Below, piece after piece: positions 25,341 to 41,311 of a DNA stretch of 64,000 nt; the stretch's first letter is position 1, and every line of letters starts with the position of its first letter. Source of the stretch: Clostridia bacterium (GTDB lineage: Bacteria > Bacillota > Clostridia > Oscillospirales > CAG-272). The notes beneath the pieces were generated by a model. That model made no database searches. It saw only the letters and a program-made list of their open reading frames with translations, and was not told the origin of the DNA. Position numbers and translations under genes: made by a program. Location of the stretch: contig JAFTIH010000037.1 in the NCBI GenBank assembly GCA_017456985.1, positions 5,558-69,557 of the forward strand, read 5' to 3'.

Positions 25341-26150
25341 ATGGCTATGAATGCTTTCGAAATCAAGAAGCAAATCTGCGAAGTCGGCCACAAGCTCTAC
25401 GCGAAGGGCTTCGTTGCCGCAAACGACGGTAACATCTCCGTCAAGGTCAACGACAATGAGTTCTACTGCACTCCTACGGGCGTATCCAAGGGCGACCTGA
25501 CCCCCGATATGATCATCCGTATCGATGCAACGGGCAAGAAGATCGAGGGTAAGCTCAATCCTTCCTCCGAGATCAAGATGCACCTTCGTGTGTATCAGGA
25601 GCGCCCCGACGTGCGCGCCGTTGTTCACGCACATCCCCCCGTTGCCACCGCTTTCACCGTTGCAGGTGTTGAGCTTGACCAGTACATCCTTCCCGAGGCT
25701 GTCCTGACCATCGGTAACGTTCCTACCTGTGAGTACGGTACCCCCTCCACCATGGAGATCCCCGACTCTCTGATGCCCTTCATCCAGAAGCACGACGCAT
25801 TCCTGCTCAAGAACCACGGTGCTCTTACCGTTGGTAACACTCTGCAGAAGGCACAGTTCACGATGGAAGAGGTTGAGTTCAACGCAGTGATCTGCAAGCA
25901 CGCACGCGAGCTTGGCGGCGTTGAGGAGATCCCCTGCGAGCAGCTTGAGAAGCTTATGGAGCTCCGCAAGAAGATGCAGATCCCCGGCCGTCACCCCGGC
26001 TGCAAGACCTGTAAGAACCTCGGCACCGAAAACTGCCGTTGCAAGCACAACTGCGACAAGGGCGACAAGAAGGCAGCTGCTCCCGCAGCAGGCGACGCCG
26101 CTCTCGTAGCAGAGATCACCAAGAAAGTTATGGAGGCGCTTGGAAGATAA
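25341..26150 (+). CDS. Class II aldolase (L-fuculose/rhamnulose-1-phosphate aldolase-like) with Cys-rich linker and C-terminal encapsulation-peptide-like helix
   Basis: Class II aldolase/adducin motifs (GNISVKV, VVHAHPP, LLKNHGALTVG). C-terminal extension CKTCKNLGTENCRCKHNC...AALVAEITKKVMEALGR. Confidence 0.85.
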   Translation: MAMNAFEIKKQICEVGHKLYAKGFVAANDGNISVKVNDNEFYCTPTGVSKGDLTPDMIIRIDATGKKIEGKLNPSSEIKMHLRVYQERPDVRAVVHAHPPVATAFTVAGVELDQYILPEAVLTIGNVPTCEYGTPSTMEIPDSLMPFIQKHDAFLLKNHGALTVGNTLQKAQFTMEEVEFNAVICKHARELGGVEEIPCEQLEKLMELRKKMQIPGRHPGCKTCKNLGTENCRCKHNCDKGDKKAAAPAAGDAALVAEITKKVMEALGR

Positions 26151-26180
26151 TTCCGCGTTTTCGGAAAGGATAACAGCACT

Positions 26181-27641
26181 ATGGCCATCAATTGGACCGA
26201 AGCACAGATCGAACAGATCGTCAAGGCTGTGATCGAAAACGTCAGCGCAGCACCCAAGGCAAGCGCCACCGTCGCTTGGAGCTCCACCGCGTATGCGGGC
26301 AGAGAGCTTATCGGCGTGTATGAAAAGATGGAGGACGCCATTGCCGCGGCAGAGAACGGCTACCGTGCCGTTCGCGCGATGTCCGTGGCAAAGCGTGAAA
26401 AGCTCATCACCCGTATTCGTGAAATGATCCGCGAGGAGGCGCCCATTATGGCGGCGCTCGGCGTTGCGGAAACGAAGATGGGCAGAGTGGATCACAAAAC
26501 CGCCAAGCATCTTCTCGTCGCCGACAAGACCCCCGGTACGGAGGACATCACGCCCACCGTCCGCACGGGTGACGACGGATTAACGCTGACCGAGATGGCA
26601 CCCTTCGGTGTCGTCGGTGCGATCACGCCCTCCACCAACCCCAGCGAAACCGTGCTGTGCAACAGTATGGGTATGATCGCCGCAGGAAACGGCGTCGTGT
26701 TCAACCCCCACCCGGGTGCGATCGCGACCTCCAACTACGCCGTTGACCTCGTCAACCGCGCGTGCGCGGCTGAGGGCGGTCCCCGCGTTCTCGTTTCCTC
26801 CGTGGTAAAGCCTACGCTGGATACGGCGAAGATCATGTACGCACATCCTTCCATCCGCCTGCTCGTTTGCACGGGCGGCCCCGGCGTTGTGAAGGCAGTG
26901 CTTTCCTCGGGTAAAAAAGCAATCGGCGCAGGCGCAGGCAATCCCCCCGTTATCGTGGACGATACGGCGGACATCGCCAAGGCGGCAAAGGACATCATCG
27001 ACGGATGCACCTTTGACAACAACCTCCCCTGCATTGCCGAGAAGGAAGTTTTCGCTTTCGATAACATTGCCGACGAGCTGATCGCCGGAATGCTCAAAAA
27101 CGGTGCCTACAAGATCACGGCGGCGCAGGCAGACGAGCTTGCCAAGATCGTGCTTGTCGATACCAAAAATCCCAAGACGGGTATCATCAAGAAGACCGTA
27201 TCGCGCGATTGCGTGGGCAGAGATGCCGCCGTGCTTCTTGAAAAGATCGGCGTAAAGGTCGGTCCCGAGATCCGTTGTATCATCTGCGAGACCGATTTCG
27301 ATCACCTGTTCGTACAGGAAGAGCTGATGATGCCTATCCTCCCCATCGTTCGTGTACATAACATTGACGAAGCGATCGAGCTCGCCGTCAAAGCGGAGCA
27401 CGGCAACCGCCACACCGCGCATATGCACTCGAAGAACATCGATCACCTGTCCCGCTTTGCCAAGGCGGTGGAAACGACCATCTTCGTCAAGAACGCGCCC
27501 TCTTATGCGGGCATCGGCTTTGGCGGTGAGGGTCACGCCACCTTCACCATCGCAGGTCCTACGGGTGAGGGAATTACCTCGGCAAAGAGCTTTACGCGTC
27601 TGCGCCGTTGCGTAATGGCGGATAACTTCCGTATTATTTAA
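26181..27641 (+). CDS. pduP: CoA-acylating aldehyde dehydrogenase (PduP/EutE-like) with N-terminal encapsulation peptide
   Basis: ALDH fold with catalytic Cys region (NNLPCIAEKE) and GAGAGNPP. N-terminus INWTEAQIEQIVKAVIENV is an amphipathic helix. Confidence 0.88.
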   Translation: MAINWTEAQIEQIVKAVIENVSAAPKASATVAWSSTAYAGRELIGVYEKMEDAIAAAENGYRAVRAMSVAKREKLITRIREMIREEAPIMAALGVAETKMGRVDHKTAKHLLVADKTPGTEDITPTVRTGDDGLTLTEMAPFGVVGAITPSTNPSETVLCNSMGMIAAGNGVVFNPHPGAIATSNYAVDLVNRACAAEGGPRVLVSSVVKPTLDTAKIMYAHPSIRLLVCTGGPGVVKAVLSSGKKAIGAGAGNPPVIVDDTADIAKAAKDIIDGCTFDNNLPCIAEKEVFAFDNIADELIAGMLKNGAYKITAAQADELAKIVLVDTKNPKTGIIKKTVSRDCVGRDAAVLLEKIGVKVGPEIRCIICETDFDHLFVQEELMMPILPIVRVHNIDEAIELAVKAEHGNRHTAHMHSKNIDHLSRFAKAVETTIFVKNAPSYAGIGFGGEGHATFTIAGPTGEGITSAKSFTRLRRCVMADNFRII

Positions 27642-27679
27642 GGTTTTTAAAATATTATGATAGAAAGGAAGTCTATGAC

Positions 27680-28876
27680 ATGGAATTGAATTCCGCACAG
27701 GTGGAAGGCATCGTACGCAAGATCCTTGGCGAGATGACCGGCAGCGCACCCGCAAAGAGCGCAGGCGGTATGGCTAAGGTAGCAATGCTGACTTCCCCCA
27801 AAAACATTGAGATCAAGGAATTCCCCATTCCCACCGTGCTTGAGGATGACGACATCCTCGTAAAGGTCGAGGGCTGCGGCGTTTGCGGTACCGACGTACA
27901 CGAGTGGAAGGGCGACCCCTTCGGACTCATCCCTGTCGTGCTGGGTCACGAGGGTACGGGCGAGATCATCGGTCTTGGTAAGAACGTAAAGTTCGATACC
28001 GCGGGCAACCCCATCAAGATTGGCGACAAGATCGTCACCTCGGTTATCTCCTGCGGCGAGTGCCAGATCTGCCGTAATCATCCTGCAAATACCAACCTCT
28101 GCGACAAGCAGGGCGTGTTCGGTCTGATCGGACACAACGATGCAAACCCCCTCAACGGTTGGTTTGCTACCCACCTTCTTATCCGCGCCAAGGGCGCAAC
28201 CTACTTCGTGGTCAATGAGCTTGACCTCAAGGAGAGAATGATCCTCGAGCTCGCTTGCGTTTGCGTACACGCTCTGAAGCGTGCGAACGGTACGGGTTTG
28301 ATGAACTTCAACTCCAAGGTCCTCATCCAGGGTCTCGGCCCCGTTGGTTTGGTTATGATCAGCGTCCTTCGTGCCGCAGGTATCAACCACATCATCGCTG
28401 TTGACGGCGCTCCGATGCGTCTTGAAATGGCGAAGAAGCTGGGCGCAAAGACCGTCATCAACTTCCGCGAGGCACAGACGCTTGATGAGCGCGTTGCCAT
28501 CGTCAAGGGTGTGACCGCGGGCATGGGTGCTGACTTTGCATTCCAGTGCACGGGTGCTCCCCCCGCAGCAGCTGACATTTACTCCTACATCCGTCGCGGC
28601 GGCGGACTTTGCGAGATGGGCTTCTTCGTCAACAACGGCGAATACAGCGTGAACCCCCACTTCGCAATGTGCAACAAGGAGATCAACATCGTTGGCTCTT
28701 GGGACTACAGTGCAGACGATTATCCCACCACCGTTGCGTTCCTGAAGCAGGCGCGTGAGATGAACATTCCGATCAAGGACCTCATCACGCACACCTATCC
28801 TCTTGACAAGCTCAACGAGGCGATGGAGACCAACCTGGCGCAGAAGGGCATTAAGATCTGCTACATCAACGAGTAA
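27680..28876 (+). CDS. Zn-dependent (MDR family) alcohol dehydrogenase with N-terminal encapsulation peptide
   Basis: GCGVCGTDVHEWKG, structural Zn Cys cluster (CGECQICRNH) and GLGPVGL Rossmann motif. N-terminus MELNSAQVEGIVRKILGEM is an amphipathic helix. Confidence 0.85.
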   Translation: MELNSAQVEGIVRKILGEMTGSAPAKSAGGMAKVAMLTSPKNIEIKEFPIPTVLEDDDILVKVEGCGVCGTDVHEWKGDPFGLIPVVLGHEGTGEIIGLGKNVKFDTAGNPIKIGDKIVTSVISCGECQICRNHPANTNLCDKQGVFGLIGHNDANPLNGWFATHLLIRAKGATYFVVNELDLKERMILELACVCVHALKRANGTGLMNFNSKVLIQGLGPVGLVMISVLRAAGINHIIAVDGAPMRLEMAKKLGAKTVINFREAQTLDERVAIVKGVTAGMGADFAFQCTGAPPAAADIYSYIRRGGGLCEMGFFVNNGEYSVNPHFAMCNKEINIVGSWDYSADDYPTTVAFLKQAREMNIPIKDLITHTYPLDKLNEAMETNLAQKGIKICYINE

Positions 28877-28900
28877 TCTCGGAAAGTAAGGTTTCTTGCT

Positions 28901-29218
28901 ATGGCACTTGGAATGGTTGAGGTTTACGGCTTTGTTACCTCTATCGTCGTGGCAGATAAAATGGCGAAGGCGGCTGATGTCGAAATCGTTGCCATTGACA
29001 AAAACAAGCCGGCAAACGCCGACAGCGCGGAGGTTCCGCTGGTGATGGTGGTCAAATGCGAGGGAACGGTAGCGGCTGTAGAATCTGCTGTCGCGGCAGG
29101 CATTGCCGAGGCAGAGGAGCGCGGTCTTTACATCACCTCGAAGATCATCTCGCGCCAGTCGGACGACGTCGAATGGTTCGCACGTCTTTCCGCTCTCGGC
29201 AAGGATAAGCTTCGATAA
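28901..29218 (+). CDS. BMC-H shell protein, divergent (Pfam00936-type)
   Basis: MALGMVEVYGFVTSIVVADKMAKAADVEIV...VKCEGTVAAVESAVAAG is a BMC domain with an inserted loop (KNKPANADSAEVP). Confidence 0.8.
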   Translation: MALGMVEVYGFVTSIVVADKMAKAADVEIVAIDKNKPANADSAEVPLVMVVKCEGTVAAVESAVAAGIAEAEERGLYITSKIISRQSDDVEWFARLSALGKDKLR

Positions 29219-29257
29219 TTTTAAAAAATAAAAAATACTTAAAGGAGAACACAAAAA

Positions 29258-29530
29258 ATGATGGAAGCTCTTGGTATGGTTGAAACCCGCGGTCTTGTTG
29301 CCGCAATTGAGGCTGCTGATGCAATGGTAAAGGCAGCAAACGTAGTACTCGTTGGTTCCGAGAAGATCGGTTCCGGCCTCGTATCCGTAATGGTTCGTGG
29401 CGACGTTGGCGCCGTTAAGGCTGCTGTAGAGGCTGGCTCTGCTGCCGCTTCGGGCCTTGGCGAGGTTATCGCAACGCACGTCATCCCCAGACCCCACGCA
29501 GACGTGGAGAAGCTCCTTCCCAAGAAGTAA
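29258..29530 (+). CDS. pduA: BMC-H shell protein (PduA/EutM-like), paralog 1
   Basis: [28 protein letters not shown]...[23 protein letters not shown]...IPRPH is canonical hexamer shell protein sequence. Confidence 0.93.
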
Positions 29531-29542
29531 TCAGATACGCTT

Positions 29543-29821
29543 ATGATGAACGAAGCAATCGCACTTCTTGAAGTGCAGGCAAACGTTGCCGCGATTGCTG
29601 GGCTGGATGCTATGGTAAAGGCGGCGAACGTTCGTCTGATTCACGTGGAAAGACGCTTGGGCGGAAGACTGGTCACGGTCGTGGTCGAAGGCACCGTCTC
29701 CGACGTTACGGCAGCTGCAGAAGCAGGTGCTGAAGCGGCGAGAGAGGTTGGCAAGGTCAAGCTGTGCGAGGTCATCGCGCGCCCGCACCCCGAAGTGATG
29801 AAATTTCTCAAACAGGGGTAA
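29543..29821 (+). CDS. BMC-H shell protein, divergent
   Basis: [29 protein letters not shown]...VTVVVEGTVSDVTAAAEAG...IARPHPEV is a BMC domain. Confidence 0.8.
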   Translation: MMNEAIALLEVQANVAAIAGLDAMVKAANVRLIHVERRLGGRLVTVVVEGTVSDVTAAAEAGAEAAREVGKVKLCEVIARPHPEVMKFLKQG

Positions 29822-29873
29822 AAAAATTCGATTTTATTTGCAAAAATAAAAAATCTTTATGGAGGATTTCAAA

Positions 29874-30143
29874 ATGGAAGCACTTGGTATGGTCGAAACC
29901 CGCGGCTTGGTTGCCGCAATCGAGGCTGCTGATGCAATGGTAAAGGCAGCAAACGTGATCCTGATCGGCTCCGAGAAGATCGGTTCCGGACTCGTATCCG
30001 TTATGGTTCGTGGCGACGTTGGTGCCGTTAAGGCTGCTGTTGAGGCTGGCTCTGCTGCCGCTTCGGGCCTTGGCGAGGTTATCGCAACGCACGTCATCCC
30101 CAGACCCCACGCAGACGTGGAGAAGCTTCTGCCCAAGATCTAA
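29874..30143 (+). CDS. pduA: BMC-H shell protein (PduA/EutM-like), paralog 2
   Basis: Near-identical to 29258..29530. Start taken at MEALGM (29874) with a TGGAGGA RBS. Confidence 0.93.
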
Positions 30144-30355
30144 TCTTGCGGGAGCGATCCTTCGCCGTCCCTTTTTGGGACGGCGAAGGGTAACATCGAA
30201 AGCAAGGCGCGCCGTTACCTGGCAAGCGCCAAACCCGCTTTTGCGGTCGATGGTCCCCCCTGCAAAACGCTTGCAGAGCGGAGCATTGCCCGTCCAAAAG
30301 ACGGAACCAATAAAAGAAATTATGCGACGAGCGTCGCAGGAAAGAGCGGTAACGT

Positions 30356-31015
30356 ATGGAACTGACTGCAAAACAAATGGAAGAACTCGTAAGACAGATC
30401 ACGGCAGAGATCGTTGCGGGAGGCAGTGCTGCGGCACAGTCGGATGAGATCCCCGTGGGCGTCTCCAACCGTCATATTCACTTAACGCGTGAGCACGTGG
30501 AGATTTTGTTTGGAAAGGGCTATGAGTTACAAAAGCTCAAGGACCTCTCCCAGCCCGGTCAGTACGCTTGTAAGGAGACCCTCACCATCGTTGGTCCCTC
30601 GCTCCGTCCCATCGAGCGCGTCCGTGTTCTGGGTCCCGAGCGCCGCGCCTCGCAGGTCGAGATCTCCAAGACCGACTCCTACGCTCTCAAGGTCAAGGCG
30701 CCCGTCCGTGAGTCGGGCAAGGTCGCAGGCTCCGCAGGTGTCACCATCATCGGTCCTTGCGGCGTGGTCACGCTTGAAGAGGGCTGTATCATCGCCAACC
30801 GCCATATTCATATGTCGCTTGCAGACGGAGAGCACTTCGGTGTTTCGGACGGCGACTACGTTACCGTTGACGCCGTGGGCGAGCGCCGCACGCGCTTCTA
30901 CGACGTGCAGGTGCGCGTGAGCAAGGATTTCTGCCTCGAAATGCACCTTGATACGGACGATGCCAACGCCGTCGGACTCACGGGCAAGAGCACCGTCAAG
31001 ATCGTAAAAGAGTAA
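30356..31015 (+). CDS. pduL: Phosphate propanoyltransferase PduL with N-terminal encapsulation peptide
   Basis: IPVGVSNRHIHLTREHVEILFG and a second repeat IIANRHIHMS (PduL duplicated motif). N-terminus MELTAKQMEELVRQITAEIV. Confidence 0.9.
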   Translation: MELTAKQMEELVRQITAEIVAGGSAAAQSDEIPVGVSNRHIHLTREHVEILFGKGYELQKLKDLSQPGQYACKETLTIVGPSLRPIERVRVLGPERRASQVEISKTDSYALKVKAPVRESGKVAGSAGVTIIGPCGVVTLEEGCIIANRHIHMSLADGEHFGVSDGDYVTVDAVGERRTRFYDVQVRVSKDFCLEMHLDTDDANAVGLTGKSTVKIVKE

Positions 31016-31040
31016 AAAAGAGCAGGGAAGGATATAAGCT

Positions 31041-31295
31041 ATGTTAAAAGGAATTGTGATCGGCAACGTCGTATCCACGAGAAAGCAGGAAGCGCTTGTC
31101 GGAAGCAAGTTTATGGAAGTGCAGATTCTGCAAAACGGCAAGGAAACGGATGAGTATATCATCGCAGTTGACAGCGTGGGCGCAGGCATCGGTGAGACGG
31201 TTCTTCTCACCACGGGCTCCTCTGCGCGCCTTGCTCTCTCCCACCCCAACGTTCCCACCGACGCCGTGATCGTCGGTATCGTGGACCCCGTATAA
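31041..31295 (+). CDS. pduN: BMC-P pentameric vertex protein (EutN/PduN/CcmL family)
   Basis: MLKGIVIGNVVSTRK...AVDSVGAGIGETVLLTTGSSAR, 84 aa. Confidence 0.9.
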   Translation: MLKGIVIGNVVSTRKQEALVGSKFMEVQILQNGKETDEYIIAVDSVGAGIGETVLLTTGSSARLALSHPNVPTDAVIVGIVDPV

Positions 31296-31311
31296 GAAAG
31301 GATCGTTCACC

Positions 31312-32634
31312 ATGAATGAAGAATTAAAGAAACGCATCCAGGACGGCGCAGTCGTCGGTGCAGGCGGCGCGGGCTTCCCCTCGTACGCCAAGCTTGCCGC
31401 AGGTGCTGATACGCTCGTGATCAACGCCTCCGAGTGTGAGCCGTTGCTCGATACGGACTACATACTGATGCGCGAGCATATGGACAAGGTCGTGGACGGC
31501 GCCAAGATCATTATGGAATGCGCCGACATCCCGAGAACGCTGCTTTGCTTAAAGGAGCACAACGCGCACCGCCTCTCGCTTACAGAAGGACAGAAGCTCG
31601 CCGAGGGCGTCTTCGTCAAGACGCTTCCCGACGTTTATCCCATCGGTGACGAGTTAGCCACCATTTACGAAGCAACGGGGCGCCTTGTCAGCCCGGGCAA
31701 CCTGCCCATCACCAAGGGCGTCATCGTCTATAACGTCGAAACGCTCGTCAACGTTTCCTTCGCCGTGCGCGAGGGTAAGCCCGTGACGGAAAAGTGGCTG
31801 ACCATCGGCGGCGACGTGGAAAAGTCCGTTGTCCTGCGCGTGCCCGTCGGTATGCGCGTGCGCGACCTTTTCAAAAAGTTCGGCATCGTCGTACCCGAGG
31901 GCTACGCGGTCATCGACGGCGGTCCTTCGATGGGTCAGATCATCAACCCCAACATCGCGGTGGTGAAAAAAAGCACCAAGGGTCTGCTTATTCTTCCCGA
32001 GCTGATCCCCGCGGTCGCAGGTAAAAAGGGCGATATCAAAACGCAGATCTCCCGCGCCTCCTCGATGTGTTGCCAGTGTACGCGTTGTACCGATATGTGC
32101 CCGCGTAATTTGCTCGGCTATCCCCTTTACCCGCACAAAATGGTCAGAACTGCGATCAACATCGCGGAAATGACGCCCGATATGATCCTCACCGCCTCGC
32201 TCTGCTGCTCCTGCGGCGTCTGCGAAACGGCGGCTTGCTGCCAGAACATTTCTCCCCGAAACGTCATTTTGGAGTTCAAGAGCATCTTGGCGAAGAACCG
32301 TATGAAGTACGTGGCGACCGAGGACGTGGTGGCAGACGAGTACCGTGACAGCCGTCTCATCCCCATCTCCCGATGGAAGGCACAGCTTGGCGTCACACCC
32401 TTCGACAGAGAAGGCGTGCTCGTGGATCCCATCGAAACGGTCGGCACCGTTGAGATCGGTTTGAATTGGCACATCGGCGCGCCCTCCGTCCTCGCCGTTA
32501 AGGTGGGAGACGTCGTCAAGAAGGGCGACAAGATCGCCGATGCGGCTGGCGGACTCTCCGTTCCCGCATACGCATCCATCGACGGAAAAGTAATCTACGC
32601 CGACGACAAAAAAGTCGTTATCGAAAGCGTTTGA
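31312..32634 (+). CDS. pduS: PduS/RnfC-like flavin and Fe-S oxidoreductase
   Basis: GAGGAGFPSYAKL, SLBB-type middle region and two 4Fe-4S Cys clusters (CCQCTRCTDMCP, CCSCGVCETAAC). Confidence 0.8.
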   Translation: MNEELKKRIQDGAVVGAGGAGFPSYAKLAAGADTLVINASECEPLLDTDYILMREHMDKVVDGAKIIMECADIPRTLLCLKEHNAHRLSLTEGQKLAEGVFVKTLPDVYPIGDELATIYEATGRLVSPGNLPITKGVIVYNVETLVNVSFAVREGKPVTEKWLTIGGDVEKSVVLRVPVGMRVRDLFKKFGIVVPEGYAVIDGGPSMGQIINPNIAVVKKSTKGLLILPELIPAVAGKKGDIKTQISRASSMCCQCTRCTDMCPRNLLGYPLYPHKMVRTAINIAEMTPDMILTASLCCSCGVCETAACCQNISPRNVILEFKSILAKNRMKYVATEDVVADEYRDSRLIPISRWKAQLGVTPFDREGVLVDPIETVGTVEIGLNWHIGAPSVLAVKVGDVVKKGDKIADAAGGLSVPAYASIDGKVIYADDKKVVIESV

Positions 32635-32657
32635 GCTTGAAAGGAAAGTAAAGTATT

Positions 32658-33203
32658 ATGATATATGCAGTAGGTGTTATTGAACTCAAAAGCATCGCAA
32701 AGGGCGTAGATGCTACCGACGCCGCACTCAAAAGCGCAGGCGTCAAGCTCATCAGCGCGCACCCCGCCTGCCCCGGTAAATACGAGATCATCCTGACGGG
32801 CTCGATCTCCGACGTAACGGCGGCGCTGGAGCACGTGCGCGGCCGCTTCGAGCAGTACATCGTTGACAGCTCCGTGATGGGACGCATCGACGAGCAGGTC
32901 ATCAAGGCGCTCTTCGGCACGCAGAGCGGTGTCAAGCAGGGCTCGCTCGGACTTATCGAAACTTATTCGGCGGCTTCCGCCATCAAGGCGGGCGATATCG
33001 CCGTCAAGACCTCGCGCGTCGAGCTTTACGATATGCGCGTTTCCCGCGGTATGGGCGGTAAGGGTATCGTCTTCGTCACGGGTGAGGTTGGCGACGTGAC
33101 CGCAGCAGTCGAAGCAGGCGGTGCCTATGCAAAGGGCATCGGTATGCTTCACGCCACCACCGTCATTGCCGCTCCCCACAAAGAGCTCTGGGAGCAGCTG
33201 TAA
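32658..33203 (+). CDS. pduT: BMC-T tandem-domain shell protein (PduT-like)
   Basis: Two BMC domains in 181 aa (AVGVIELKSIAKGVDATDAALKSAGV...; SLGLIETYSAASAIKAGDIAVKTSRV...). Cys in HPACPGKY sits where PduT ligates its 4Fe-4S cluster. Confidence 0.85.
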   Translation: MIYAVGVIELKSIAKGVDATDAALKSAGVKLISAHPACPGKYEIILTGSISDVTAALEHVRGRFEQYIVDSSVMGRIDEQVIKALFGTQSGVKQGSLGLIETYSAASAIKAGDIAVKTSRVELYDMRVSRGMGGKGIVFVTGEVGDVTAAVEAGGAYAKGIGMLHATTVIAAPHKELWEQL

Positions 33204-33258
33204 TCTAAAAAAACAACGTCCCACCCAAAGGGATAGGGATTGAAAGGAGAATAAAGCT

Positions 33259-35793
33259 ATGGTGCATCAGCCCACCCGCTTTACCACGGAAAAGAGTGCG
33301 CGCATCCCTATGCTCATTTCCGATATTTTCGGCAATTTTCCTCAGATCGAAGCCGACCGCGCGATCCTTCTGACCGAGAGCTACAAGGCAACGGAGGCGC
33401 TTCCTACGATCCGCCGCCGCAGTGCGGCATTCGCCCACATCCTTGCAGGTCTTCCCGTCGTCATTCGCCGCGGCGAGCTGATCGTGGGTGTCAATACCAA
33501 GAACCCCCGCAGCTGCCCCACCTTCCCCGAGTATTCCTGGGAATGGCTTGAAGCAGAATTCGACACCGTTGAAACGCGTGAGGCAGACCCCTTCCACATC
33601 TCCGAACAGACCAAGGAAGCACTTCGCGCCATCCATCCCTATTGGAAGGGTAAGACCTCGAGCGAGCTCGCGGCATCCTTGATGTCCCCCGAGGCGTACG
33701 ACGTCTTTATGAACCACGGTATCTTCACCGTCGGTAACTACTTCTATAACGGCGTGGGTCATATCACCGTGGATTACGGTAAGGTGCTCCGCATCGGCTA
33801 CGAGGGCATCAAGAAGGAAGCGCTTGCGGCGCTTGCCTCCATCAAAACGGGTGACGGCGACTATATGCAGCGCACCCACTTCATCAAGGCGGTCATCGAG
33901 TGCTGTGACGCCGCAAGAGATTTTGCCGCGCGCTACGCAGACGAGGCAGAGCGTCTTGCCGCCGCCGAGAGCGATCGCGTTCGCCGCGAGGAGCTTCTTG
34001 AGATCGCCAAGATCTGCCGCCACGTGCCGTATCACGGCGCACGCTCCTTCCACGAGGCTTGCCAGTCCTTCTGGTTCGTTCAGCTTCTCATCCAGACGGA
34101 GGGCAGCGGTCACTCCATCTCCCCCGGTCGCTTCGACCAGTATATGTATCCCTTCTACAAGGCTGACCTTGACGCGGGTAAGATCACCCACGAGCAGGCA
34201 CAGGAGCTGATCGACTGCATTTGGGTCAAGCTCAACAGCTTGAGCAAGGTGCGTGACGCCGAGTCCGCCGCAGGCTTTGCAGGATACAGTATGTTCCAGA
34301 ACCTCATCGTCGGTGGTCAGGATAAAAATGGTATGGACGCTACCAACGACCTGTCCTATATGTGTCTTGAAGCATCCATCCACGTTCGTCTGCCTCAGCC
34401 CTCGCTCTCTATCCGCGTATGGAACGGCTCGCCCCAGGAGCTTCTTCTGAAGGCGGCGTACTTAACGCGTCTTGGCGACGGCGTTCCCGCATACTACAAC
34501 GACGAGATCATCATCCCCGCGCTTATGTCCCGTGGACTTTCTCTTGAGGAAGCGCGCGACTATTCCATCATCGGATGCGTTGAGCCGCAGACGCCCCACG
34601 CAACCGACGGCTGGCACGACGCGGCATTCTTCAATATGTGCCGCCCGATGGAGCTCGTATTCTCCAACGGTGTGGACGAGGGTGTGCAGATCGGTCCTCG
34701 CACGGGCGAGCTTCGCGAGCTTGATACCTTTGAAAAGTTTTTTGACGCATACAAGAAGCAGGAAGCGTATTTCATCGAGCTGATGGTCAACGCCGACAAC
34801 GCCGTTGACGTTGCGCACGGTGTCCGTTGCCCCCTCCCCTTCGAGTCCTCGATGGTGGACGGTTGTCTTGCCAGCGGTAAGGCGGTCGAAGAGGGCGGTG
34901 CCCGTCACAACTTTACGGGTCCCCAGGGCTTTGGTATTGCCAATATGACCGACGCACTCCTTGCGATCCGTGAGCTGGTCTATGAAAAGAAGCTCGTTAC
35001 GCTTTGCGAATATAAGGAAGCGATGGCGGCAAACTTCGGTAAGGGCTTTACGGGCAAGGGCGCCGAGAAGATGACCATCAAGGTCGCAAGCGCACTTGCA
35101 AAGGCGGGCGTCGAGATCACGGACGCCGTCATCAAGACCATCCACGAAACCGTAAGCTCGGGCGACTATCTGCCCAAGGAGAAGCGCGCACGCTACGAGG
35201 AGATCTACAAGCTCATCGGCACCGTCAAGAAGTACGGTAACGACGATAAGGAAGCCGACCTCTTTGCGCGTGAGGTCGCTTACACCTATACCAAGGAAGT
35301 AGAGAAGTACACCAACCCCCGCGGCGGTATCTACCACGCAGGTCTGTACCCCGTATCCGCAAACGTGCCGCTCGGCGCGCAGACGGGAGCAACGCCCGAC
35401 GGACGTCTTGCTTACACGCCTATTGCGGACGGTGTCGGTCCCGCATCGGGCAGAGACGTGTGCGGTCCTACGGCGGCGGCAAACTCCGTAGCCAAGCTTG
35501 ACCACGGTATCGCCTCCAACGGTACGCTCTTTAACCAGAAGTTCCACCCCGCCGCTCTTGCAGGCGAGGCAGGACTGCTCAAGTTCGTTTCGCTCATTCG
35601 CGGCTTCTTTGACCAGAAGGGTATGCATATGCAGTTTAACGTGGTCAACCGCGAAACGCTTCTCGATGCGCAAGCGCATCCCGAAAACTACCGCAACCTC
35701 GTGGTGCGCGTCGCAGGCTATAGCGCGCTGTTCACCACCCTCTCCCGCTCGCTGCAGGACGACATCATCGCCCGTACCGAGCAGGGATTCTGA
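33259..35793 (+). CDS. Glycyl radical enzyme, PFL-like family; probable B12-independent diol (1,2-propanediol) dehydratase
   Basis: 844 aa. Catalytic Cys loop IIGCVEPQ and C-terminal glycyl radical motif VVRVAGYSALF. The substrate call is contextual (aldolase + PduP + PduL). Confidence 0.9.
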   Translation: MVHQPTRFTTEKSARIPMLISDIFGNFPQIEADRAILLTESYKATEALPTIRRRSAAFAHILAGLPVVIRRGELIVGVNTKNPRSCPTFPEYSWEWLEAEFDTVETREADPFHISEQTKEALRAIHPYWKGKTSSELAASLMSPEAYDVFMNHGIFTVGNYFYNGVGHITVDYGKVLRIGYEGIKKEALAALASIKTGDGDYMQRTHFIKAVIECCDAARDFAARYADEAERLAAAESDRVRREELLEIAKICRHVPYHGARSFHEACQSFWFVQLLIQTEGSGHSISPGRFDQYMYPFYKADLDAGKITHEQAQELIDCIWVKLNSLSKVRDAESAAGFAGYSMFQNLIVGGQDKNGMDATNDLSYMCLEASIHVRLPQPSLSIRVWNGSPQELLLKAAYLTRLGDGVPAYYNDEIIIPALMSRGLSLEEARDYSIIGCVEPQTPHATDGWHDAAFFNMCRPMELVFSNGVDEGVQIGPRTGELRELDTFEKFFDAYKKQEAYFIELMVNADNAVDVAHGVRCPLPFESSMVDGCLASGKAVEEGGARHNFTGPQGFGIANMTDALLAIRELVYEKKLVTLCEYKEAMAANFGKGFTGKGAEKMTIKVASALAKAGVEITDAVIKTIHETVSSGDYLPKEKRARYEEIYKLIGTVKKYGNDDKEADLFAREVAYTYTKEVEKYTNPRGGIYHAGLYPVSANVPLGAQTGATPDGRLAYTPIADGVGPASGRDVCGPTAAANSVAKLDHGIASNGTLFNQKFHPAALAGEAGLLKFVSLIRGFFDQKGMHMQFNVVNRETLLDAQAHPENYRNLVVRVAGYSALFTTLSRSLQDDIIARTEQGF

Positions 35794-35830
35794 TCCCCGA
35801 TCCTCTAAACATCCACGAAAGGAGACCGTC

Positions 35831-36640
35831 GTGACGGAATATTACGCATCCGACGCCGCAACTCGCGGCAGAATCTTCGATATCCAGCGCTATTCCGTCA
35901 ACGACGGTCCCGGCATTCGTACCATCGTTTTTTTAAAGGGCTGTATGTTCCGTTGCCGCTGGTGCTCCAACCCCGAGGGACAGCTCTTTGAGCCCGTCAC
36001 CTTGAAGGCGATGCACGGCAAGGGTGACAAGATCGCAGGCACGGACGTGACGGCGGGCGAGGTGATGGAAACCGTCCTGCGCGACAGCGTCTATTACGCA
36101 CGCTCGGGCGGCGGACTCACCCTTTCGGGCGGCGAAGCGCTTCTTCAGCCCGACTTTGCACTCGCGCTCTTCCGTCTTGCTCACTTGCACGGCGTGAACA
36201 CCGCTATTGAAACGACGGGCTACGCCTCGCGCGAGGTGCTGGATAGACTCCTGCCGCACATTGATTACGTCTTGATGGATATCAAGCATATGGACCCGAA
36301 AAAGCACGAAGCCTTTATCGGAAAGACCAACGAGCGCGTCCTTGAAAACGCGCCGTATATCGCACAGCACGCGCACCACTATACCGTGCGCGTCCCCGTC
36401 ATCCCCACCTTCAACGACACCGACGCGGAGATCGCCGCCATCGCGCGCTTCGCCGCATCGATGCCCGGTACCAAGGCGATCCACCTGCTTCCGTATCACC
36501 GACTGGGTATGGATAAGTACACTGCTCTCGGCAGAGATTACGGTATGGGAACGGTCCCCCTGATCCCCGATGAGAAAATGCGCCGACTGCTGTTGGTAGC
36601 GCAGGAAAGTAGCGGTTTAGCCTGCCAGATCGGCGGTTGA
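35831..36640 (+). CDS. Glycyl-radical enzyme activating enzyme (radical SAM)
   Basis: GTG start at 35831 with GAAAGGAG RBS. GPGIRTIVFLKGCMFRCRWCSNPE (CxxxCxxC). The tracked ORF start at 35498 lies inside the GRE gene and was rejected. Confidence 0.88.
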   Translation: MTEYYASDAATRGRIFDIQRYSVNDGPGIRTIVFLKGCMFRCRWCSNPEGQLFEPVTLKAMHGKGDKIAGTDVTAGEVMETVLRDSVYYARSGGGLTLSGGEALLQPDFALALFRLAHLHGVNTAIETTGYASREVLDRLLPHIDYVLMDIKHMDPKKHEAFIGKTNERVLENAPYIAQHAHHYTVRVPVIPTFNDTDAEIAAIARFAASMPGTKAIHLLPYHRLGMDKYTALGRDYGMGTVPLIPDEKMRRLLLVAQESSGLACQIGG

Positions 36641-36679: not shown

Positions 36680-36816
36680 GGGGCAGTACAAAGTACAGCT
36701 CCCTCGTGTCAAGCCTCGTCTGGAACAATTTTCCCTCAAATAGATGGTTTTGGTCCTTTAAGGGGCAGTACAAGGTACAGCGCCCTCGTGTCAAACATCG
36801 TCTGGAACGCTTTTTC
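36680..36816 (+). repeat. Two about 55-nt direct repeats (36680-36734 and 36762-36816), 82 nt period, in the activase-pduU spacer
   Basis: GGGGCAGTACAAAGTACAGCTCCCTCGTGTCAAGCCTCGTCTGGAACAATTTTCC versus GGGGCAGTACAAGGTACAGCGCCCTCGTGTCAAACATCGTCTGGAACGCTTTTTCC. Each starts with a GGGGCAGTAC-nnn-GTACAGCnCCC hairpin. Confidence 0.8.
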
Positions 36817-36878
36817 CATAAGCACTCGGCCCTCAAAATTTTAACTTTGCAAATAACGCACCGTAAGGAGCAAAACAT

Positions 36879-37238
36879 ATGGAACTTAAAGAAAATATGC
36901 GCATTGTCCAAGAGCTGGTCCCCGGTAAACAGATCACGCTCGCGCACATCATCGCAAATCCCGACCCGCTTCTTTATCAGAAGCTCGGTCTTAATCCCAA
37001 GACGGACTATTCCAAGTCTGCGATCGGTATTCTCACCGTTTCCCCTGCGGAAACGGCGGTCATTTGTGCGGACATCTCGATGAAGTCCTCCAACGCCGAG
37101 GTCGGCTTTGTGGACCGCTTCACGGGTACCTTGATCATCACGGGTACGGTTTCTGCCGTGGATGAGGCGTTCAACGCCATTATGACCTACGTACAGGAGA
37201 AGCTCGGCTATACCGTCGTAGAGAAGACGCGCACGTAA
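36879..37238 (+). CDS. pduU: Circularly permuted BMC shell protein PduU/EutS
   Basis: RIVQELVPGKQITLAHIIANP...SAIGILTVSPAETAVICADI is the PduU/EutS signature N-terminus. Confidence 0.88.
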   Translation: MELKENMRIVQELVPGKQITLAHIIANPDPLLYQKLGLNPKTDYSKSAIGILTVSPAETAVICADISMKSSNAEVGFVDRFTGTLIITGTVSAVDEAFNAIMTYVQEKLGYTVVEKTRT

Positions 37239-37239
37239 G

Positions 37240-37710
37240 ATGAAAAAGCTGATTCTGATGGGGCGTGTCGCCGCAGGAAAGACCACGCTATTGCAGGCGC
37301 TTTCGGGCGAGGACATCTCCTATTATAAAACGCAATCCATCCATTATCTCGACTACATTATTGACACCCCGGGCGAATACACCGAGCGGAGAGAAACCGG
37401 CGGTGCTCTCGCCCTTTATGCATATGAGGCAGACGTTGTGGGACTTGTGATCTCGGCAAACGAGCCTTATTCTATTTATAGCCCCTGCATCACCTGTATG
37501 GTCAACCGCGACGTCATCGGTATCATTACGGGTGTCGATAAGCCGGACGCCAACCCCGAGCAGGTAGAAAATTGGCTCCGCCTTGCAGGATGCTCCCACG
37601 TGTTCCGCGTATCCTCTTATACGGGAGAGGGCATTGAGGAGCTTCTCGATTACTTAAAGGACGACTCGGACCGCGAACAAGAACAAACGGAAGGGAAGAA
37701 AACAGTATGA
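37240..37710 (+). CDS. pduV: PduV/EutP family small GTPase
   Basis: MKKLILMGRVAAGKTTLLQAL...IDTPGEY. Starts 1 nt after the pduU stop. Confidence 0.88.
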   Translation: MKKLILMGRVAAGKTTLLQALSGEDISYYKTQSIHYLDYIIDTPGEYTERRETGGALALYAYEADVVGLVISANEPYSIYSPCITCMVNRDVIGIITGVDKPDANPEQVENWLRLAGCSHVFRVSSYTGEGIEELLDYLKDDSDREQEQTEGKKTV

Positions 37711-38498
37711 GCTTAACCAAAGTGATCTGCTTCGCCAATAACAAGGGAGGAAGCGGAAAATCCACCACCTGCTCCAACGTCGGTACCGCACTTGCACAGA
37801 TGGGAAAGCGCGTGCTTCTCGTGGATGGCGATATGCAGTTAAACCTCTCGCTTTCCTTCTTCGACGAGGACACCGTGCTTTCGATGGCGGCAAGCGAAAA
37901 AAATCTTTATTACGCCATCAAAAACGAGCAGGACCTTGCCGACTATATCATCCCCACTCCCTACGAAAACCTTGACCTCATCCCCTCCTCGACCCTGATG
38001 AGCGGTATTGAGGTGGAGCTTTTCACCAAGTGGCAAAGAGAGTTTATTCTTAAGAAGTGCTTAGAACGCGTGCGCGCCTCGGGCAAATACGATTTTATTC
38101 TGCTCGACTCGCCCCCGACGCTCGGCGGCTGGGTGATGAACATTATGTGCGCCTCCGATTATCTCATCGTTCCCGTTGAGGCAAGCCCCTGGGGACTGTT
38201 CGGACTTGCCAATATGTTCGAGTTTGCAGACAAGGTGCGCTCGCTCGCGCCGAATCTCACCGTGCTCGGCATCGCCGTCACCAAGGCGGACGAGCGCAAG
38301 AACTACTTCCGTCAGACGCTCGAAACGCTGGGCGAGATCGACGGCGTCCATCTGTTTGAGTCCATCATCCGTGTCGATAGCACGGTGGAATGGTCGCAGG
38401 ATAACTCCAAGCCCGTTTTGGTGTATAAGCCTTCGGCAAGAAGTGCCAAGGAATACATAAATCTTACAAAGGAGATTTTAAATTATGTCAGTAGGTAA
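37707..38498 (+). CDS. ParA/MinD-family P-loop ATPase (candidate McdA-like BMC positioning ATPase)
   Basis: Deviant Walker A with signature Lys (NNKGGSGKST), A' motif LLVDGDMQ, Walker B FILLDSPP. 263 aa, no N-terminal HTH. ATGA overlap with pduV. The ParA family call is solid; the BMC-positioning role is inference. Confidence 0.9.
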   Translation: MSLTKVICFANNKGGSGKSTTCSNVGTALAQMGKRVLLVDGDMQLNLSLSFFDEDTVLSMAASEKNLYYAIKNEQDLADYIIPTPYENLDLIPSSTLMSGIEVELFTKWQREFILKKCLERVRASGKYDFILLDSPPTLGGWVMNIMCASDYLIVPVEASPWGLFGLANMFEFADKVRSLAPNLTVLGIAVTKADERKNYFRQTLETLGEIDGVHLFESIIRVDSTVEWSQDNSKPVLVYKPSARSAKEYINLTKEILNYVSR

Positions 38499-38784
38499 AG
38501 CAAGCATTAAGCGCGCTGTCGGCGATAGCGCAAAGGTGGAAGAAAAGGTTGCCGTAGAAAAGGCAGAGGTAGCAAAGGCTCCCGCAGCCAAGAAGGCACC
38601 CGCAAAAAAAGCCCCCGCGAAAAAGCCCGCCGCTCCTAAGGCAGCCGCACCCAAAGCAGAGGCGCCCGCAAAGCCCGCGCCTGCAAAGAAGCCCGCCGCT
38701 CCCAAGCCCGCATCCGCCCCTAAGGCGACCGCCGCAAACGATGCCGTTGCCGTTGGTGACGCGATGCCCTACTATTTGTTATGA
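38485..38784 (+). CDS. Small Lys/Ala/Pro-rich, probably disordered protein (candidate McdB-like adaptor); hypothetical
   Basis: 99 aa counted from the track: 33 A, 19 K, 14 P, net charge about +12. N-terminal basic patch GKASIKR, (P)AKK repeats, C-terminus AMPYYLL. AAGGAG RBS. Overlaps the parA-like stop by 14 nt, and the next gene overlaps its stop by 4 nt. Confidence 0.6.
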   Translation: MSVGKASIKRAVGDSAKVEEKVAVEKAEVAKAPAAKKAPAKKAPAKKPAAPKAAAPKAEAPAKPAPAKKPAAPKPASAPKATAANDAVAVGDAMPYYLL

Positions 38785-40346
38785 TGAAAAAAATACTGTC
38801 CCTATTTCTGCTTTTATCCCTTCTTTTGACGACAGCGTGCTCGTCCTCCCCTTATTTTGATTTCGTCGGCGAGGATCTCTCCGCGTATTACGAGCTTTCT
38901 CTCGATGAGATCACGGGCGGGACCTACGAGATCACGATGTCGGACGAGGTCACGATGGCGGACGTTGAGAAGGAGCTGCGCAGACTGCGTCTGTATCACG
39001 CCACCTACGGTCCCAACGATATTGACACCTACGCGATGATTCCCGAATACGGCGACGACGTGCGTATCTTTTACGAGATCAAGCTCACTGAGGACGGGGA
39101 GTGCCTTCTCTCCAACCTCTACGCCAAGGAGCCGCAATCCGTTATCATCGGACAGTGGGAGTTCCCCGAAGCCATCGAGAAAACCTACTCTCCCGTACTT
39201 GACAACCCCGCTGTTTCCGAGTCGCTTCTTTCGGCGATGCCCGCAGAGCGTATCTTTACGGGCACGGTTGCTGAGGGGGACGTCGTTTATGTAAACTATA
39301 AGCGCTATGCCACCGCTGCCCCCTCCAAGATCCTCTCCTCGCAAACGGCGGCGCGTATCGACTCGGGCGTTCCCGCCGACACGTATGCCGACACCTACGG
39401 TGCGGAATTTGCCCGTGCCGTGGTCGGAAAAACGGTAGGGGATACCTATCGCTTCACCGCGATGGAAACGGTGGACGGTACGCTCCAAGAGGTCACCTAC
39501 GTTTGCAAGGTGTCCTATATTGCAAAGGAAACCTATCGCACCGTTACGGTTGCAGTCCCTGCGGACGCTTACGACGAGGAATACAGCGAGGTGATGCAGA
39601 GCCTCAACGGCAAGACCGTTCTCGTTCGCTACGTCATCCATCGTTACGTTGACTACGCGACCCCCGAGCTTGACGTCAATTTCTTTACCGAGAAGCTGGG
39701 CTTTGAGACCGAGGAAACGGATCCCGCACGCGTCAAGGAAGAGGTGTGCGCCAAGCTTTTGGAGCAGATGGAGCAAACGCGCCTGATCGAAGAGATCTAT
39801 CCCCAGGTCTGGGCGCATATCTTCGATAAACTCTTCGCGCGCAAGGATCGCCTTAAAAAGCTTCCCGAAGCAACGGTGGAGCTTGAATACGACCTTTTGA
39901 TGCTCGAAGGACGCCTTGCGTACGAAAGTGCGCAAAAGAAGGCGACTGAAAACGGCACGGCGTTCTCTTATGCCAATATCGATGCCTTCGCTCCCGAGTA
40001 TTTCGGGTACGACGCGGCGCGCTATTCCACGATGAAGGCATTCTGTGAGGCAGAAGCCGAATACCAGGTCACCGTCAAGGTGATGACCTTCGCGATCGCG
40101 CAGGCGGCGGACATCCTTCTCACCCCCGAGGAGTATGACAAGCTGATCGAAGAGTATCTCGCTTATCTGATCGAATATTATAAATCCTCGTATCAAACGG
40201 ATCAGATCACCCCCGTGATGATCTACCAGAATTACGGCGCAGGCACGCGCGAGGATTTTGAAGCCTTCGTTCTCTATCGTGACACCGAAGGACAGATCCT
40301 AGAATATCTTTACAAAAACAACACCTGGAAGCCCAAGGCTTCTTAA
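38781..40346 (+). CDS. Lipoprotein, function unknown (weak trigger-factor/PPIase-chaperone-like character)
   Basis: Signal peptide plus lipobox MMKKILSLFLLLSLLLTTAC. Helical C-terminal region resembles chaperone arm domains. No confident family assignment by eye. Confidence 0.6.
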   Translation: MMKKILSLFLLLSLLLTTACSSSPYFDFVGEDLSAYYELSLDEITGGTYEITMSDEVTMADVEKELRRLRLYHATYGPNDIDTYAMIPEYGDDVRIFYEIKLTEDGECLLSNLYAKEPQSVIIGQWEFPEAIEKTYSPVLDNPAVSESLLSAMPAERIFTGTVAEGDVVYVNYKRYATAAPSKILSSQTAARIDSGVPADTYADTYGAEFARAVVGKTVGDTYRFTAMETVDGTLQEVTYVCKVSYIAKETYRTVTVAVPADAYDEEYSEVMQSLNGKTVLVRYVIHRYVDYATPELDVNFFTEKLGFETEETDPARVKEEVCAKLLEQMEQTRLIEEIYPQVWAHIFDKLFARKDRLKKLPEATVELEYDLLMLEGRLAYESAQKKATENGTAFSYANIDAFAPEYFGYDAARYSTMKAFCEAEAEYQVTVKVMTFAIAQAADILLTPEEYDKLIEEYLAYLIEYYKSSYQTDQITPVMIYQNYGAGTREDFEAFVLYRDTEGQILEYLYKNNTWKPKAS

Positions 40347-41281: not shown

Positions 41282-41311
41282 AAAAGACGCGCAATTTTGC
41301 GCGTCTTTTTT
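41282..41311 (+). terminator. Rho-independent terminator ending the long BMC gene string
   Basis: AAAAGACGCGCA-attt-TGCGCGTCTTTTTT. Confidence 0.8.

Follow-up and report, generated by a model that had tools for sequence, protein, structure and literature searches.

Our analysis of a 64,000-nucleotide stretch of the genome of a Clostridia bacterium of the CAG-272 lineage (contig JAFTIH010000037.1, positions 5,558 to 69,557; hereafter the window) points to a ParA/MinD-family ATPase gene and the small gene directly following it, whose product is termed the adaptor below, as a two-protein ParA-type positioning system for the bacterial microcompartment (BMC) encoded upstream of them, comparable to the McdA/McdB system of carboxysomes. 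We hold this reading with moderate confidence, because the two genes stand in a tight chain with pduU and pduV, the pair is linked to BMC genes in more than half of the relatives evaluated and in several distinct layouts, the two ends of the adaptor are invariant, and no link to plasmids, phages or parS sites emerged. A first-pass annotation of the window, made from the sequence alone, had proposed such an McdAB-like module and had held it to be without experimental precedent for any metabolosome. The hypothesis is sound but not new, as McdAB-like genes at GRM/PDU loci have already been published as a prediction; what stands is that the literature holds no experimental demonstration of ParA-type positioning for a metabolosome (PMC13052382, PMC12139897, PMC12866334).

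The ATPase and adaptor genes are the last two of a conserved PduU-PduV-ParA-adaptor block, the first gene of which encodes a PduU-like minor shell protein (Table 1). The unbroken chain of coupled genes that had been read from the sequence is borne out at each junction: a single nucleotide separates the pduU stop from the pduV start, pduV and the ATPase gene share an ATGA overlap, and the ATPase and adaptor genes overlap by 14 nt. The AAGGAG ribosome-binding site attributed to the adaptor gene is likewise present, lying within the 3' end of the ATPase gene, 10 nt 5' of the adaptor ATG. The pduV product scores 138.7 bits against TIGR02528, for which the cutoff is 138.35. Among the relatives, a PduU-like gene is found directly 5' of PduV-ParA in 33 species, and the spacing between PduV and ParA, also across 33 species, ranges from -41 to +52 nt, with the -4 overlap as the most frequent value.

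Table 1. Features of the ParA-adaptor region, in window coordinates
Feature	Position	Strand	Basis or remark
GRM5-type BMC locus	25341..36640	+	Pfam matches; gene order matches relatives
pduU-like minor shell protein gene	36879..37238	+	PF00936 BMC domain, E 7.5e-12
pduV/eutP-family small GTPase gene	37240..37710	+	PF10662, E 7e-49
ParA/MinD-family ATPase gene, 263 aa, Soj-like, without helix-turn-helix	37707..38498	+	Pfam, motifs
AAGGAG ribosome-binding site of adaptor gene	38469..38474	+	sequence
Adaptor gene, 99 aa	38485..38784	+	conserved in 79/80 species; ParA overlap 14 nt
Adaptor N-terminal motif MSVGKASIKRA	38485..38517	+	motif table
Ala/Lys/Pro-rich low-complexity linker	38518..38754	+	length and sequence vary; ParB_N in some relatives
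Adaptor C-terminal tail AVGDAMPYYLL-COOH	38755..38781	+	motif table; motif specific to partners

The adaptor combines two fixed ends with a free middle part. Through the ATPase we collected 80 species-representative loci, and an open reading frame (ORF) occupies the place of the adaptor in 79 of these species-level relatives, overlapping the ParA stop with the same geometry as in the window in 72 of the 79. The N-termini of these 79 partners conform to the consensus M-[SPA]-[VI]-G-K-x-S-I-x-R, with G4 and R10 invariant and K5 present in 78 sequences. Their C-termini conform to [VIL]-x-[DE]-[ED]-[LM]-P-x-[YHWF]-L-[LM], with P(-5) and L(-2) invariant, a last residue that is L in 76 and M in 3, and a residue of the aromatic class at position -3 (Y in 66, H in 6, W in 4 and F in 3). 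In most adaptors D/E residues stand at positions -8 and -7, and the window adaptor, ending in ...MPYYLL, has Tyr at both -4 and -3. Both features for which a conservation check had been proposed, namely the basic N-terminal patch and the C-terminal aromatic tip, are kept in the 79 partners. All fetched loci together comprise 18,183 stop-to-stop segments, of which 93 contain the C-terminal motif, every one of the 93 being a partner; in the window the motif is present in one of 859 such segments. This conservation, taken together with the specificity of the motif to partners, indicates that the small ORF is maintained beyond chance and is a real gene. The last residues of ParA itself within the overlap are not conserved, and the constraint there hence stems from the reading frame of the partner. 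A protein search also recovered approximately 20 small proteins with the same two ends. A metagenome scan anchored on the adaptor alignment, in which tblastn handled the low-complexity query poorly, yielded 201 pattern matches, 2 of them confirmed, and no extra context.

Between its two ends the family is free in both length and sequence, the total length ranging from 61 to 181 aa. The composition given earlier for the window adaptor proved exact, with 33 Ala, 19 Lys and 14 Pro among 99 residues (67% Ala/Lys/Pro), a net charge of +12, and GKASIKR, AKK repeats and AMPYYLL all present. Its linker gives weak histone-H1-like matches (PF07382, 19.7 bits against a cutoff of 40; NF038053, 20.6 against a cutoff of 80), which reflect composition only; beyond these sub-threshold matches the window partner contains no Pfam domain. 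An AlphaFold2 model of the adaptor built from an 18-sequence alignment (pLDDT 59, pTM 0.13) contains only a low-confidence helix at residues 6-29 and is consistent with a disordered protein carrying a helical N-terminal peptide. The adaptor gene lies directly 3' of that of the ATPase and its product has a basic N-terminal peptide, as in the partners of ParA/MinD-family ATPases, the stimulation itself being predicted. By analogy with such partners, the N-terminal motif is predicted to be a ParA-binding, ATPase-stimulating peptide, and the tail is predicted to act as a cargo-docking motif.

The ATPase matches AAA_31 (PF13614, E 8e-53) and CbiA (PF01656, E 1e-18) and contains neither a helix-turn-helix (HTH) nor any other additional domain. 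As had been noted, it displays a deviant Walker A motif with the signature Lys (K13GGSGKST20, within NNKGGSGKST at residues 11-20), a Walker A' motif (D40GD, within DGDMQ at 40) and a Walker B motif (D134, within LLDSPP at 132), a combination that places it in the ParA/MinD family. Across 83 orthologues, conservation reaches 95% or more in the NNKGGSGK segment and at 113 of the 263 residues overall, and both R197 in an Asp-x-Arg motif and the C-terminal helix align with Soj. The closest solved structures are those of the ParA family protein 8RAY (3e-33) and of Soj (1WCV, 3e-24; 6IUB, 2e-22), whereas the crystallized Cyanothece McdA-like proteins (6NON/6NOO), which MacCready 2020 does not regard as true McdAB, match more weakly than 8RAY and Soj (E 2e-13). 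At the level of sequence the ATPase is accordingly closer to Soj-type ParA than to these crystallized McdA-like proteins, the comparison with which does not reveal a specific relationship to McdA. The orthologues constitute a tight clade: clusters at 70% identity or above number more than 120, and species-representative genomes contain at least 500 matching stretches. The 357-aa protein P0002, at first sight a possible natural fusion of ParA and adaptor, owes its length to an internal duplication of ~95 residues that is an artefact of assembly.

The locus immediately upstream of the block encodes, as judged by Pfam matches, a class II aldolase, an aldehyde dehydrogenase, a Zn-dependent alcohol dehydrogenase, four BMC-H proteins, PduL, a PduS-like protein, BMC-T, and a glycyl radical enzyme (GRE) with its activase. 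The joint occurrence of aldolase, GRE with activase, aldehyde dehydrogenase, PduL, PduS-like protein and shell genes is that of the GRM5 class as defined by Axen 2014, and the cluster is a fucose/rhamnose microcompartment locus with ParA and the adaptor at its 3' end. The context in the relatives was assessed by tblastn of the window BMC proteins against the 80 loci, 72 of which were evaluable, the remaining 8 having too little upstream sequence to judge; the linkage counts are from tblastn only, and ORF calls were unreliable in high-GC loci, in which antisense ORFs displaced real genes. Shell genes together with PduV directly 5' of ParA were found in 33 loci, shell genes within 10 kb and no adjacent PduV in 6, PduV upstream on a short contig in 1, and a GRE only in 1, with the other 31 evaluable loci having no BMC gene in their 10-kb flanks. 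Synteny with BMC loci in relatives, on which the earlier proposal had been made to depend, is thus seen in 40 of the 72 evaluable species-level loci (56%), usually with coupling to PduV, and no plasmid or parS features are found in its stead. A BMC locus and its flanks account for ~1% of a genome, and the observed linkage is hence far above chance.

The BMC-linked arrangement holds down to 69% ParA identity and takes several forms. In one layout, to which the window belongs, the GRE and activase are placed between BMC-T and PduU. In Hespellia (L029) the order is BMC-T, DeoR, Fe-dependent alcohol dehydrogenase (Fe-ADH), ParA and adaptor. An uncultured Blautia possesses a satellite locus (L041:5641-8249) comprising an M18 aminopeptidase, a PduU-like BMC protein, a 142-aa BMC protein, PduV, ParA and the adaptor, and its 13-kb contig encodes no pathway enzymes. 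Look-ups anchored on two divergent adaptors recovered the same block, preceded by the GRE activating enzyme (AE-PduU-PduV-ParA-adaptor) and followed by unrelated genes, one of them GH106-like. The block being the same and the downstream genes varying, the conserved unit appears to be PduU-PduV-ParA-adaptor, without the 521-aa ORF that follows the adaptor in the window.

Some loci display further variation of the surroundings of the pair. In eight GRM5-like loci (L017, L026, L048, L055, L060, L063, L069 and L078; for example L026:340-10789) neither GRE nor activase stands between BMC-T and PduU or anywhere else within the 10-kb flank, the window gene order being otherwise kept; these may represent an aldolase-only variant, or their GRE may be encoded elsewhere. 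Loci L003-L006 (for example L003:5684-10075) contain a GRE that is 66% identical to the window GRE and an activase, directly followed by ParA and an adaptor with the tail ELPIWLL, genes for shell proteins, PduU and PduV being absent within 9 kb; either the BMC locus has been split or a non-encapsulated GRE has kept the pair. A PduQ-like Fe-ADH, forming one blastp cluster, adjoins the pair in L031, L080, L088 (3' of the adaptor) and L029 (L029:8834-9979). In L029 it lies inside the BMC locus, and in L031, L080 and L088 there are no shell genes within 10 kb.

The association of such genes with microcompartments has a history in the literature. ParA (PF01656) was listed in 2014 as an ancillary Pfam of BMC loci (PMC4207490). 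In the portion of MacCready 2021 that deals with non-carboxysome systems, McdA- and/or McdB-like genes are reported for four non-carboxysome BMC types, either inside the locus or adjoining it, and the last four residues include a Tyr (PMC8359340). The C-terminal logos of PDU and GRM McdB-like proteins in Basalla 2024 place Y or F among the final five residues, close to acidic ones (PMC11321042). Reviews repeat the presence of McdAB-like genes at GRM/PDU loci (among them PMC8262871), and a 2025 preprint names other BMC operons as a future test. As described in those portions, the published pairs share with ours the order of ParA-type gene and then small ORF, the latter with a C-terminal Tyr/Phe and acidic residues, and the window pair, located after pduV and with the tail MPYYLL, has what this literature takes to mark the McdB-like proteins of non-carboxysome BMCs. 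Judging from these descriptions, it very probably belongs to the same family. The published examples in these accounts amount to a handful defined by the C-terminal feature only. What appears to be new here is the species-level count, the unlinked copies, the N-terminal motif, the PduU-PduV cassette and its satellite, the ParB_N relatives and the Soj-like character of the ATPase.

Compared by description, the pair resembles the alpha-McdAB system of H. neapolitanus in uniting an ATPase bearing the signature Lys with a small, monomer-like, largely disordered adaptor whose N-terminal helix contains a critical Lys (K7 in H. neapolitanus, K5 here). Residues 1-20 of H. neapolitanus McdB are necessary and sufficient for docking on and stimulation of the ATPase, K7 being critical (PMC12139897), and its C-terminal aromatic-acidic motif, to which the adaptor tail is similar, is sufficient for cargo binding (PMC12139897, PMC11321042). 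According to the section of Basalla 2024 on these motifs, acidic-aromatic C-terminal motifs are required for McdB to associate with carboxysomes, and Tyr partly replaces Trp (PMC11321042). The general layout of McdB is also reproduced, in that the protein is small, encoded after the ATPase, basic at its N-terminus, biased in composition, and has acidic residues by a C-terminal aromatic residue. The systems differ in that the invariant C-terminal Trp of McdB has no counterpart at position -3 of the 79 partners, where Tyr prevails, in the proposed GRM5 metabolosome cargo, and in the ParB ancestry proposed here. With its ATPase nearer to Soj, Tyr in place of Trp, and ParB_N domains in relatives of the adaptor, the pair is not, on these sequence comparisons, a member of McdAB either by descent or by the invariant Trp, and in this respect the McdA/McdB-like reading of the first-pass annotation is not supported. 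The review cited above presents PduV, with reference to Parsons 2010, as a Ras-like GTPase suggested to position Pdu BMCs (PMC8262871); it belongs to a protein family other than ParA, and in our block it is encoded directly 5' of the ATPase and coupled to it. The Salmonella operon closes with PduU-PduV and lacks the ParA pair that follows them in the window. To our knowledge, PduV is the only other factor that has been proposed for the localization of metabolosomes.

The window gives no indication of a DNA-partition locus, in agreement with what had been concluded from it earlier. At 3 mismatches the parS consensus finds one match in the 64 kb, where chance predicts 1.09, and no ParB, replication or mobile-element gene is present among the ORFs scanned from 25.3 to 42.3 kb. 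Among 72,556 plasmids the closest ParA is 41.5% identical, and among 50,697 phages 35.6%, so that the family was not found in either collection, and in an example relative the pair is situated 1.64 Mb into a 4.8 Mb contig, in a chromosomal context. The type I partition locus is characterized by a DNA-binding partner domain, parS and a location on a plasmid, in a prophage or at an origin, none of which was found here; with the plasmid, phage and parS searches all negative, a plasmid or phage partition function was rejected.

Yet the pair shares with Soj/ParA-Spo0J/ParB systems a Soj-like ATPase, the order of ATPase then partner, and the presence of a ParB N-terminal domain (ParB_N) in some relatives of the partner. 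In five partners from the genome scan this domain is flanked by the two end motifs described above, and the three of them that were scanned match PF02195 (E-values 1e-13, 1e-12 and 4e-8), each scoring higher than the cutoff of 26.3 bits; PF02195 is also present in 11 of the 12 clusters that a dedicated search recovered. These domains are closest to Noc and Spo0J, their GERR box is degenerate (SG[GNHS]xRLQA), and no HTH or dimerization domain was detected in any partner variant. On the neighbor-joining tree of ParA the ParB_N-type pairs fall in two places. The window system differs from Soj/Spo0J in that its partner has neither ParB_N nor HTH nor dimerization domain, in the absence of parS, and in not being located at an origin or on a plasmid. 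As it has no ParB_N match in Pfam, the window partner is not a member of ParB/Srx, and its invariant C-terminal tail is an extra element that canonical ParB lacks. Since domain loss is the simpler history, we take the adaptor family to have arisen from a ParB and the Ala/Lys/Pro linker of the window adaptor to have replaced the ParB_N body. Chromosomal ParB N-termini probably have the form LG(R/K)GLxAL. The clostridial ParB encoded beside a 40%-identical ParA in L096 starts with LSSKKVINK, which is basic and shows no match to the adaptor N-terminal motif.

The ParB_N partners are 145-228 aa long and follow ParA (L058, L047, L062, L073, L087; L097:9223-10468; L098:9202-10564). They start with MPVGKGSIxRA, end with DMPxYLL, and contain an extra conserved stretch, IHELKFK.VTT.SRD, before the tail; their pairs are chromosomal and in several genomes lie next to araA/AraC. 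The Blautia-type partners (L018, L053, L071; the ORF just after ParA at ~10776) have a second, semi-conserved internal motif. Variants of it, namely SVLTPxNSEELQAKFLS, HVIANIDPEVVEKVVG and SxVIxxPDEQVVEKMV, occur in many unlinked partners, and the window adaptor is without it. Possibly this internal motif is what is left of the ParB_N start.

A mechanism can be proposed by combining these elements. Upon binding ATP, the Soj-like ATPase would dimerize and coat the nucleoid, a step suggested by the intact deviant Walker A motif with its signature Lys and by the conserved Asp-x-Arg motif that aligns with Soj. The N-terminal peptide of the adaptor (G4-K5...R10), which has helix propensity, would dock on the dimer and stimulate hydrolysis and release, by analogy with the N-termini of ParB, MinE and McdB. 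The acidic-aromatic tail (D/E-D/E-L/M-P-x-Y-L-L) would in turn dock on the BMC surface, possibly via PduU or PduV, whose constant presence beside the pair makes them candidate receptors. The Lys/Ala/Pro linker would serve as a flexible polycationic spacer, and any role of it in multivalency, condensates or DNA contacts is speculative. The outcome would be a diffusion-ratchet that spaces the BMCs, keeps them from clumping and allows both daughter cells to inherit them.

Several observations weigh against such a positioning system. In 31 of the 72 evaluable species the pair has no BMC gene within 10 kb; these loci are mostly from Blautia, and also from Herbinix, Galacturonibacter and some Lachnospiraceae, with sugar ABC/PTS transporters, araA, aspartate kinase, Rnf, cyclophilin and GNAT as neighbors. 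This suggests that the pair is an autonomous module, and of the earlier proposal the conserved ParA/adaptor pair and its occurrence in BMC loci stand, whereas its dedication to a GRE microcompartment does not. None of the ParB_N-type partners is BMC-linked, there being no BMC gene within 10 kb of any of them. Further, linked and unlinked loci largely separate on the neighbor-joining ParA tree, which is without support values; linkage thus largely follows ParA phylogeny, implying few independent associations, in roughly 4 to 6 configurations. Finally, a 2026 paper reports that H. neapolitanus McdAB, native ParA and MinD were without effect on Salmonella Pdu BMCs (PMC12866334), and metabolosomes hence do not universally depend on such systems. 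The non-linkage in 43% of species would not by itself contradict the positioning model, since cyanobacterial mcdAB genes are often remote from the ccm operon or beside the minor shell genes ccmK3/4 (PMC7182216), a placement paralleled by the satellite and unlinked loci here, and since Blautia is reported, at the genus level only, to carry pdu (PMC11414229).

The same unlinked copies, which in 43% of species lie among unrelated housekeeping genes, would be accommodated if the pair were an orphan ParA with a ParB-derived adaptor serving some other, general cargo, for instance a nucleoid-occlusion-like or division-coupling device whose tail engages FtsA, SepF, MinC or EzrA, the adjacency to BMC genes being a lineage-specific gene arrangement. 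The tail, [DE][LM]Px[YF]L[LM], indeed resembles the FtsZ C-terminal peptide (DIPAFLR / DIPTFLR, PMC6657595), both being at the end of long disordered linkers. Partner tails such as ELPTFLM, DLPTYLL and ELPVYLL match D-[IL]-P-x-[FY]-L, and the ParB_N partners, nearest to Noc and Spo0J, are never BMC-linked. However, the likeness is that of a 6-residue linear motif, and the tail ends in L or M and not in a basic residue as in FtsZ. No division gene is a recurrent neighbor, and ftsZ, looked for in connection with the tail comparison, is found neither in the window nor in the fetched loci. The coupling to PduV in 33 species and the shell-PduV-ParA-adaptor satellite would also be left unexplained, and we consider this account rather unlikely. 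A composite history, in which the adaptor is a ParB that kept its N-terminal activating peptide, swapped its ParB_N/DNA-binding body for a polycationic spacer and carries an invariant tail copying the FtsZ peptide, is to be regarded as very unlikely.

An account in which the pair is related to BMCs but positions nothing, and instead regulates their assembly, number or turnover together with PduV, the nucleoid not being used as a track, draws on the very same BMC synteny as the positioning reading, and the role of PduV itself is unresolved (PMC8262871). It seems improbable to us, as the characterized ParA/MinD-family pairs with an N-terminal stimulating peptide are positioning systems and as the Soj-like Asp-x-Arg motif and C-terminal helix would argue for retained DNA binding. 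Partition of a chromosome region, an element or a plasmid, with the histone-H1-like linker in place of the ParB DNA-binding domain, would agree with the Soj-like ATPase, the ParB descent of the partner family and the weak compositional matches of the linker to histone H1. But parS is lacking, as are HTH and dimerization domains in every partner variant; the ParB_N variants have a degenerate GERR CTP box; the family is absent above 41.5% identity from the plasmids and phages searched; the flanking genes are chromosomal housekeeping or BMC genes and not those of mobile elements; and it is the C-terminal tail that is conserved and not the sequence of the linker. DNA partition is therefore highly improbable, and the positioning of the upstream microcompartment remains our favored interpretation.

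The coding chain of the window continues past 38784, the adaptor stop forming an ATGA overlap with an ORF of 521 aa (38781-40346) that has a lipoprotein-like signal (MMKKILSLFLLLSLLLTTAC) and a weak trigger-factor-like match (TIGR00115, E 4e-5, far below the cutoff). After it, at 40367-41275, stands a gene for a BspA-type LRR_5 protein. Conservation of the two is confined to the closest relatives (30-48% identity), and in other lineages neither follows the adaptor. The 521-aa ORF, considered as a third component, was rejected, being kept only in the closest relatives, with other genes following the adaptor elsewhere. A perfect 12-bp palindromic hairpin (AAAAGACGCGCAAAATTGCGCGTCTTTT) at 41282-41309, between convergent genes, is the first convincing terminator-like hairpin and probably acts as a terminator in both directions, bringing the long + strand operon to its end. 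At the other end of the block, the 238-nt gap from the GRE activase to pduU contains two copies of a 56-nt direct repeat (36680-36735 and 36762-36817; 88% identical, 82-nt spacing), the sole repeat near the chain genes. The window has no further copy of the repeat, and none of 89 fetched loci contains its core. RNA folding of this intergenic region is only marginally better than that of shuffled sequences (z = -1.97), and Rfam and tRNA scans of the window gave no matches. For the pduU-pduV-ParA-adaptor unit the repeat pair might serve as a tandem operator or as an internal promoter region.

The spacing and inheritance of catabolic microcompartments still call for an explanation, PduV having been the sole earlier lead. 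The family described here is abundant in gut Clostridia, including Roseburia, Agathobacter and Blautia, and its short, sharp end motifs and compact four-gene block make the question directly testable. The four-gene cassette might also be put to use in engineering, for the spacing of synthetic metabolosomes. If the tail were to engage FtsA, SepF or MinC, in addition to the shell or in its place, the PduU-PduV-ParA-adaptor block would be a portable cassette coupling organelle inheritance or nucleoid state to the divisome; we know of no link between organelle and divisome for any bacterial organelle. Finally, the relatives with a ParB_N domain between the same two end motifs suggest a route by which DNA-partition proteins might have given rise to organelle adaptors.

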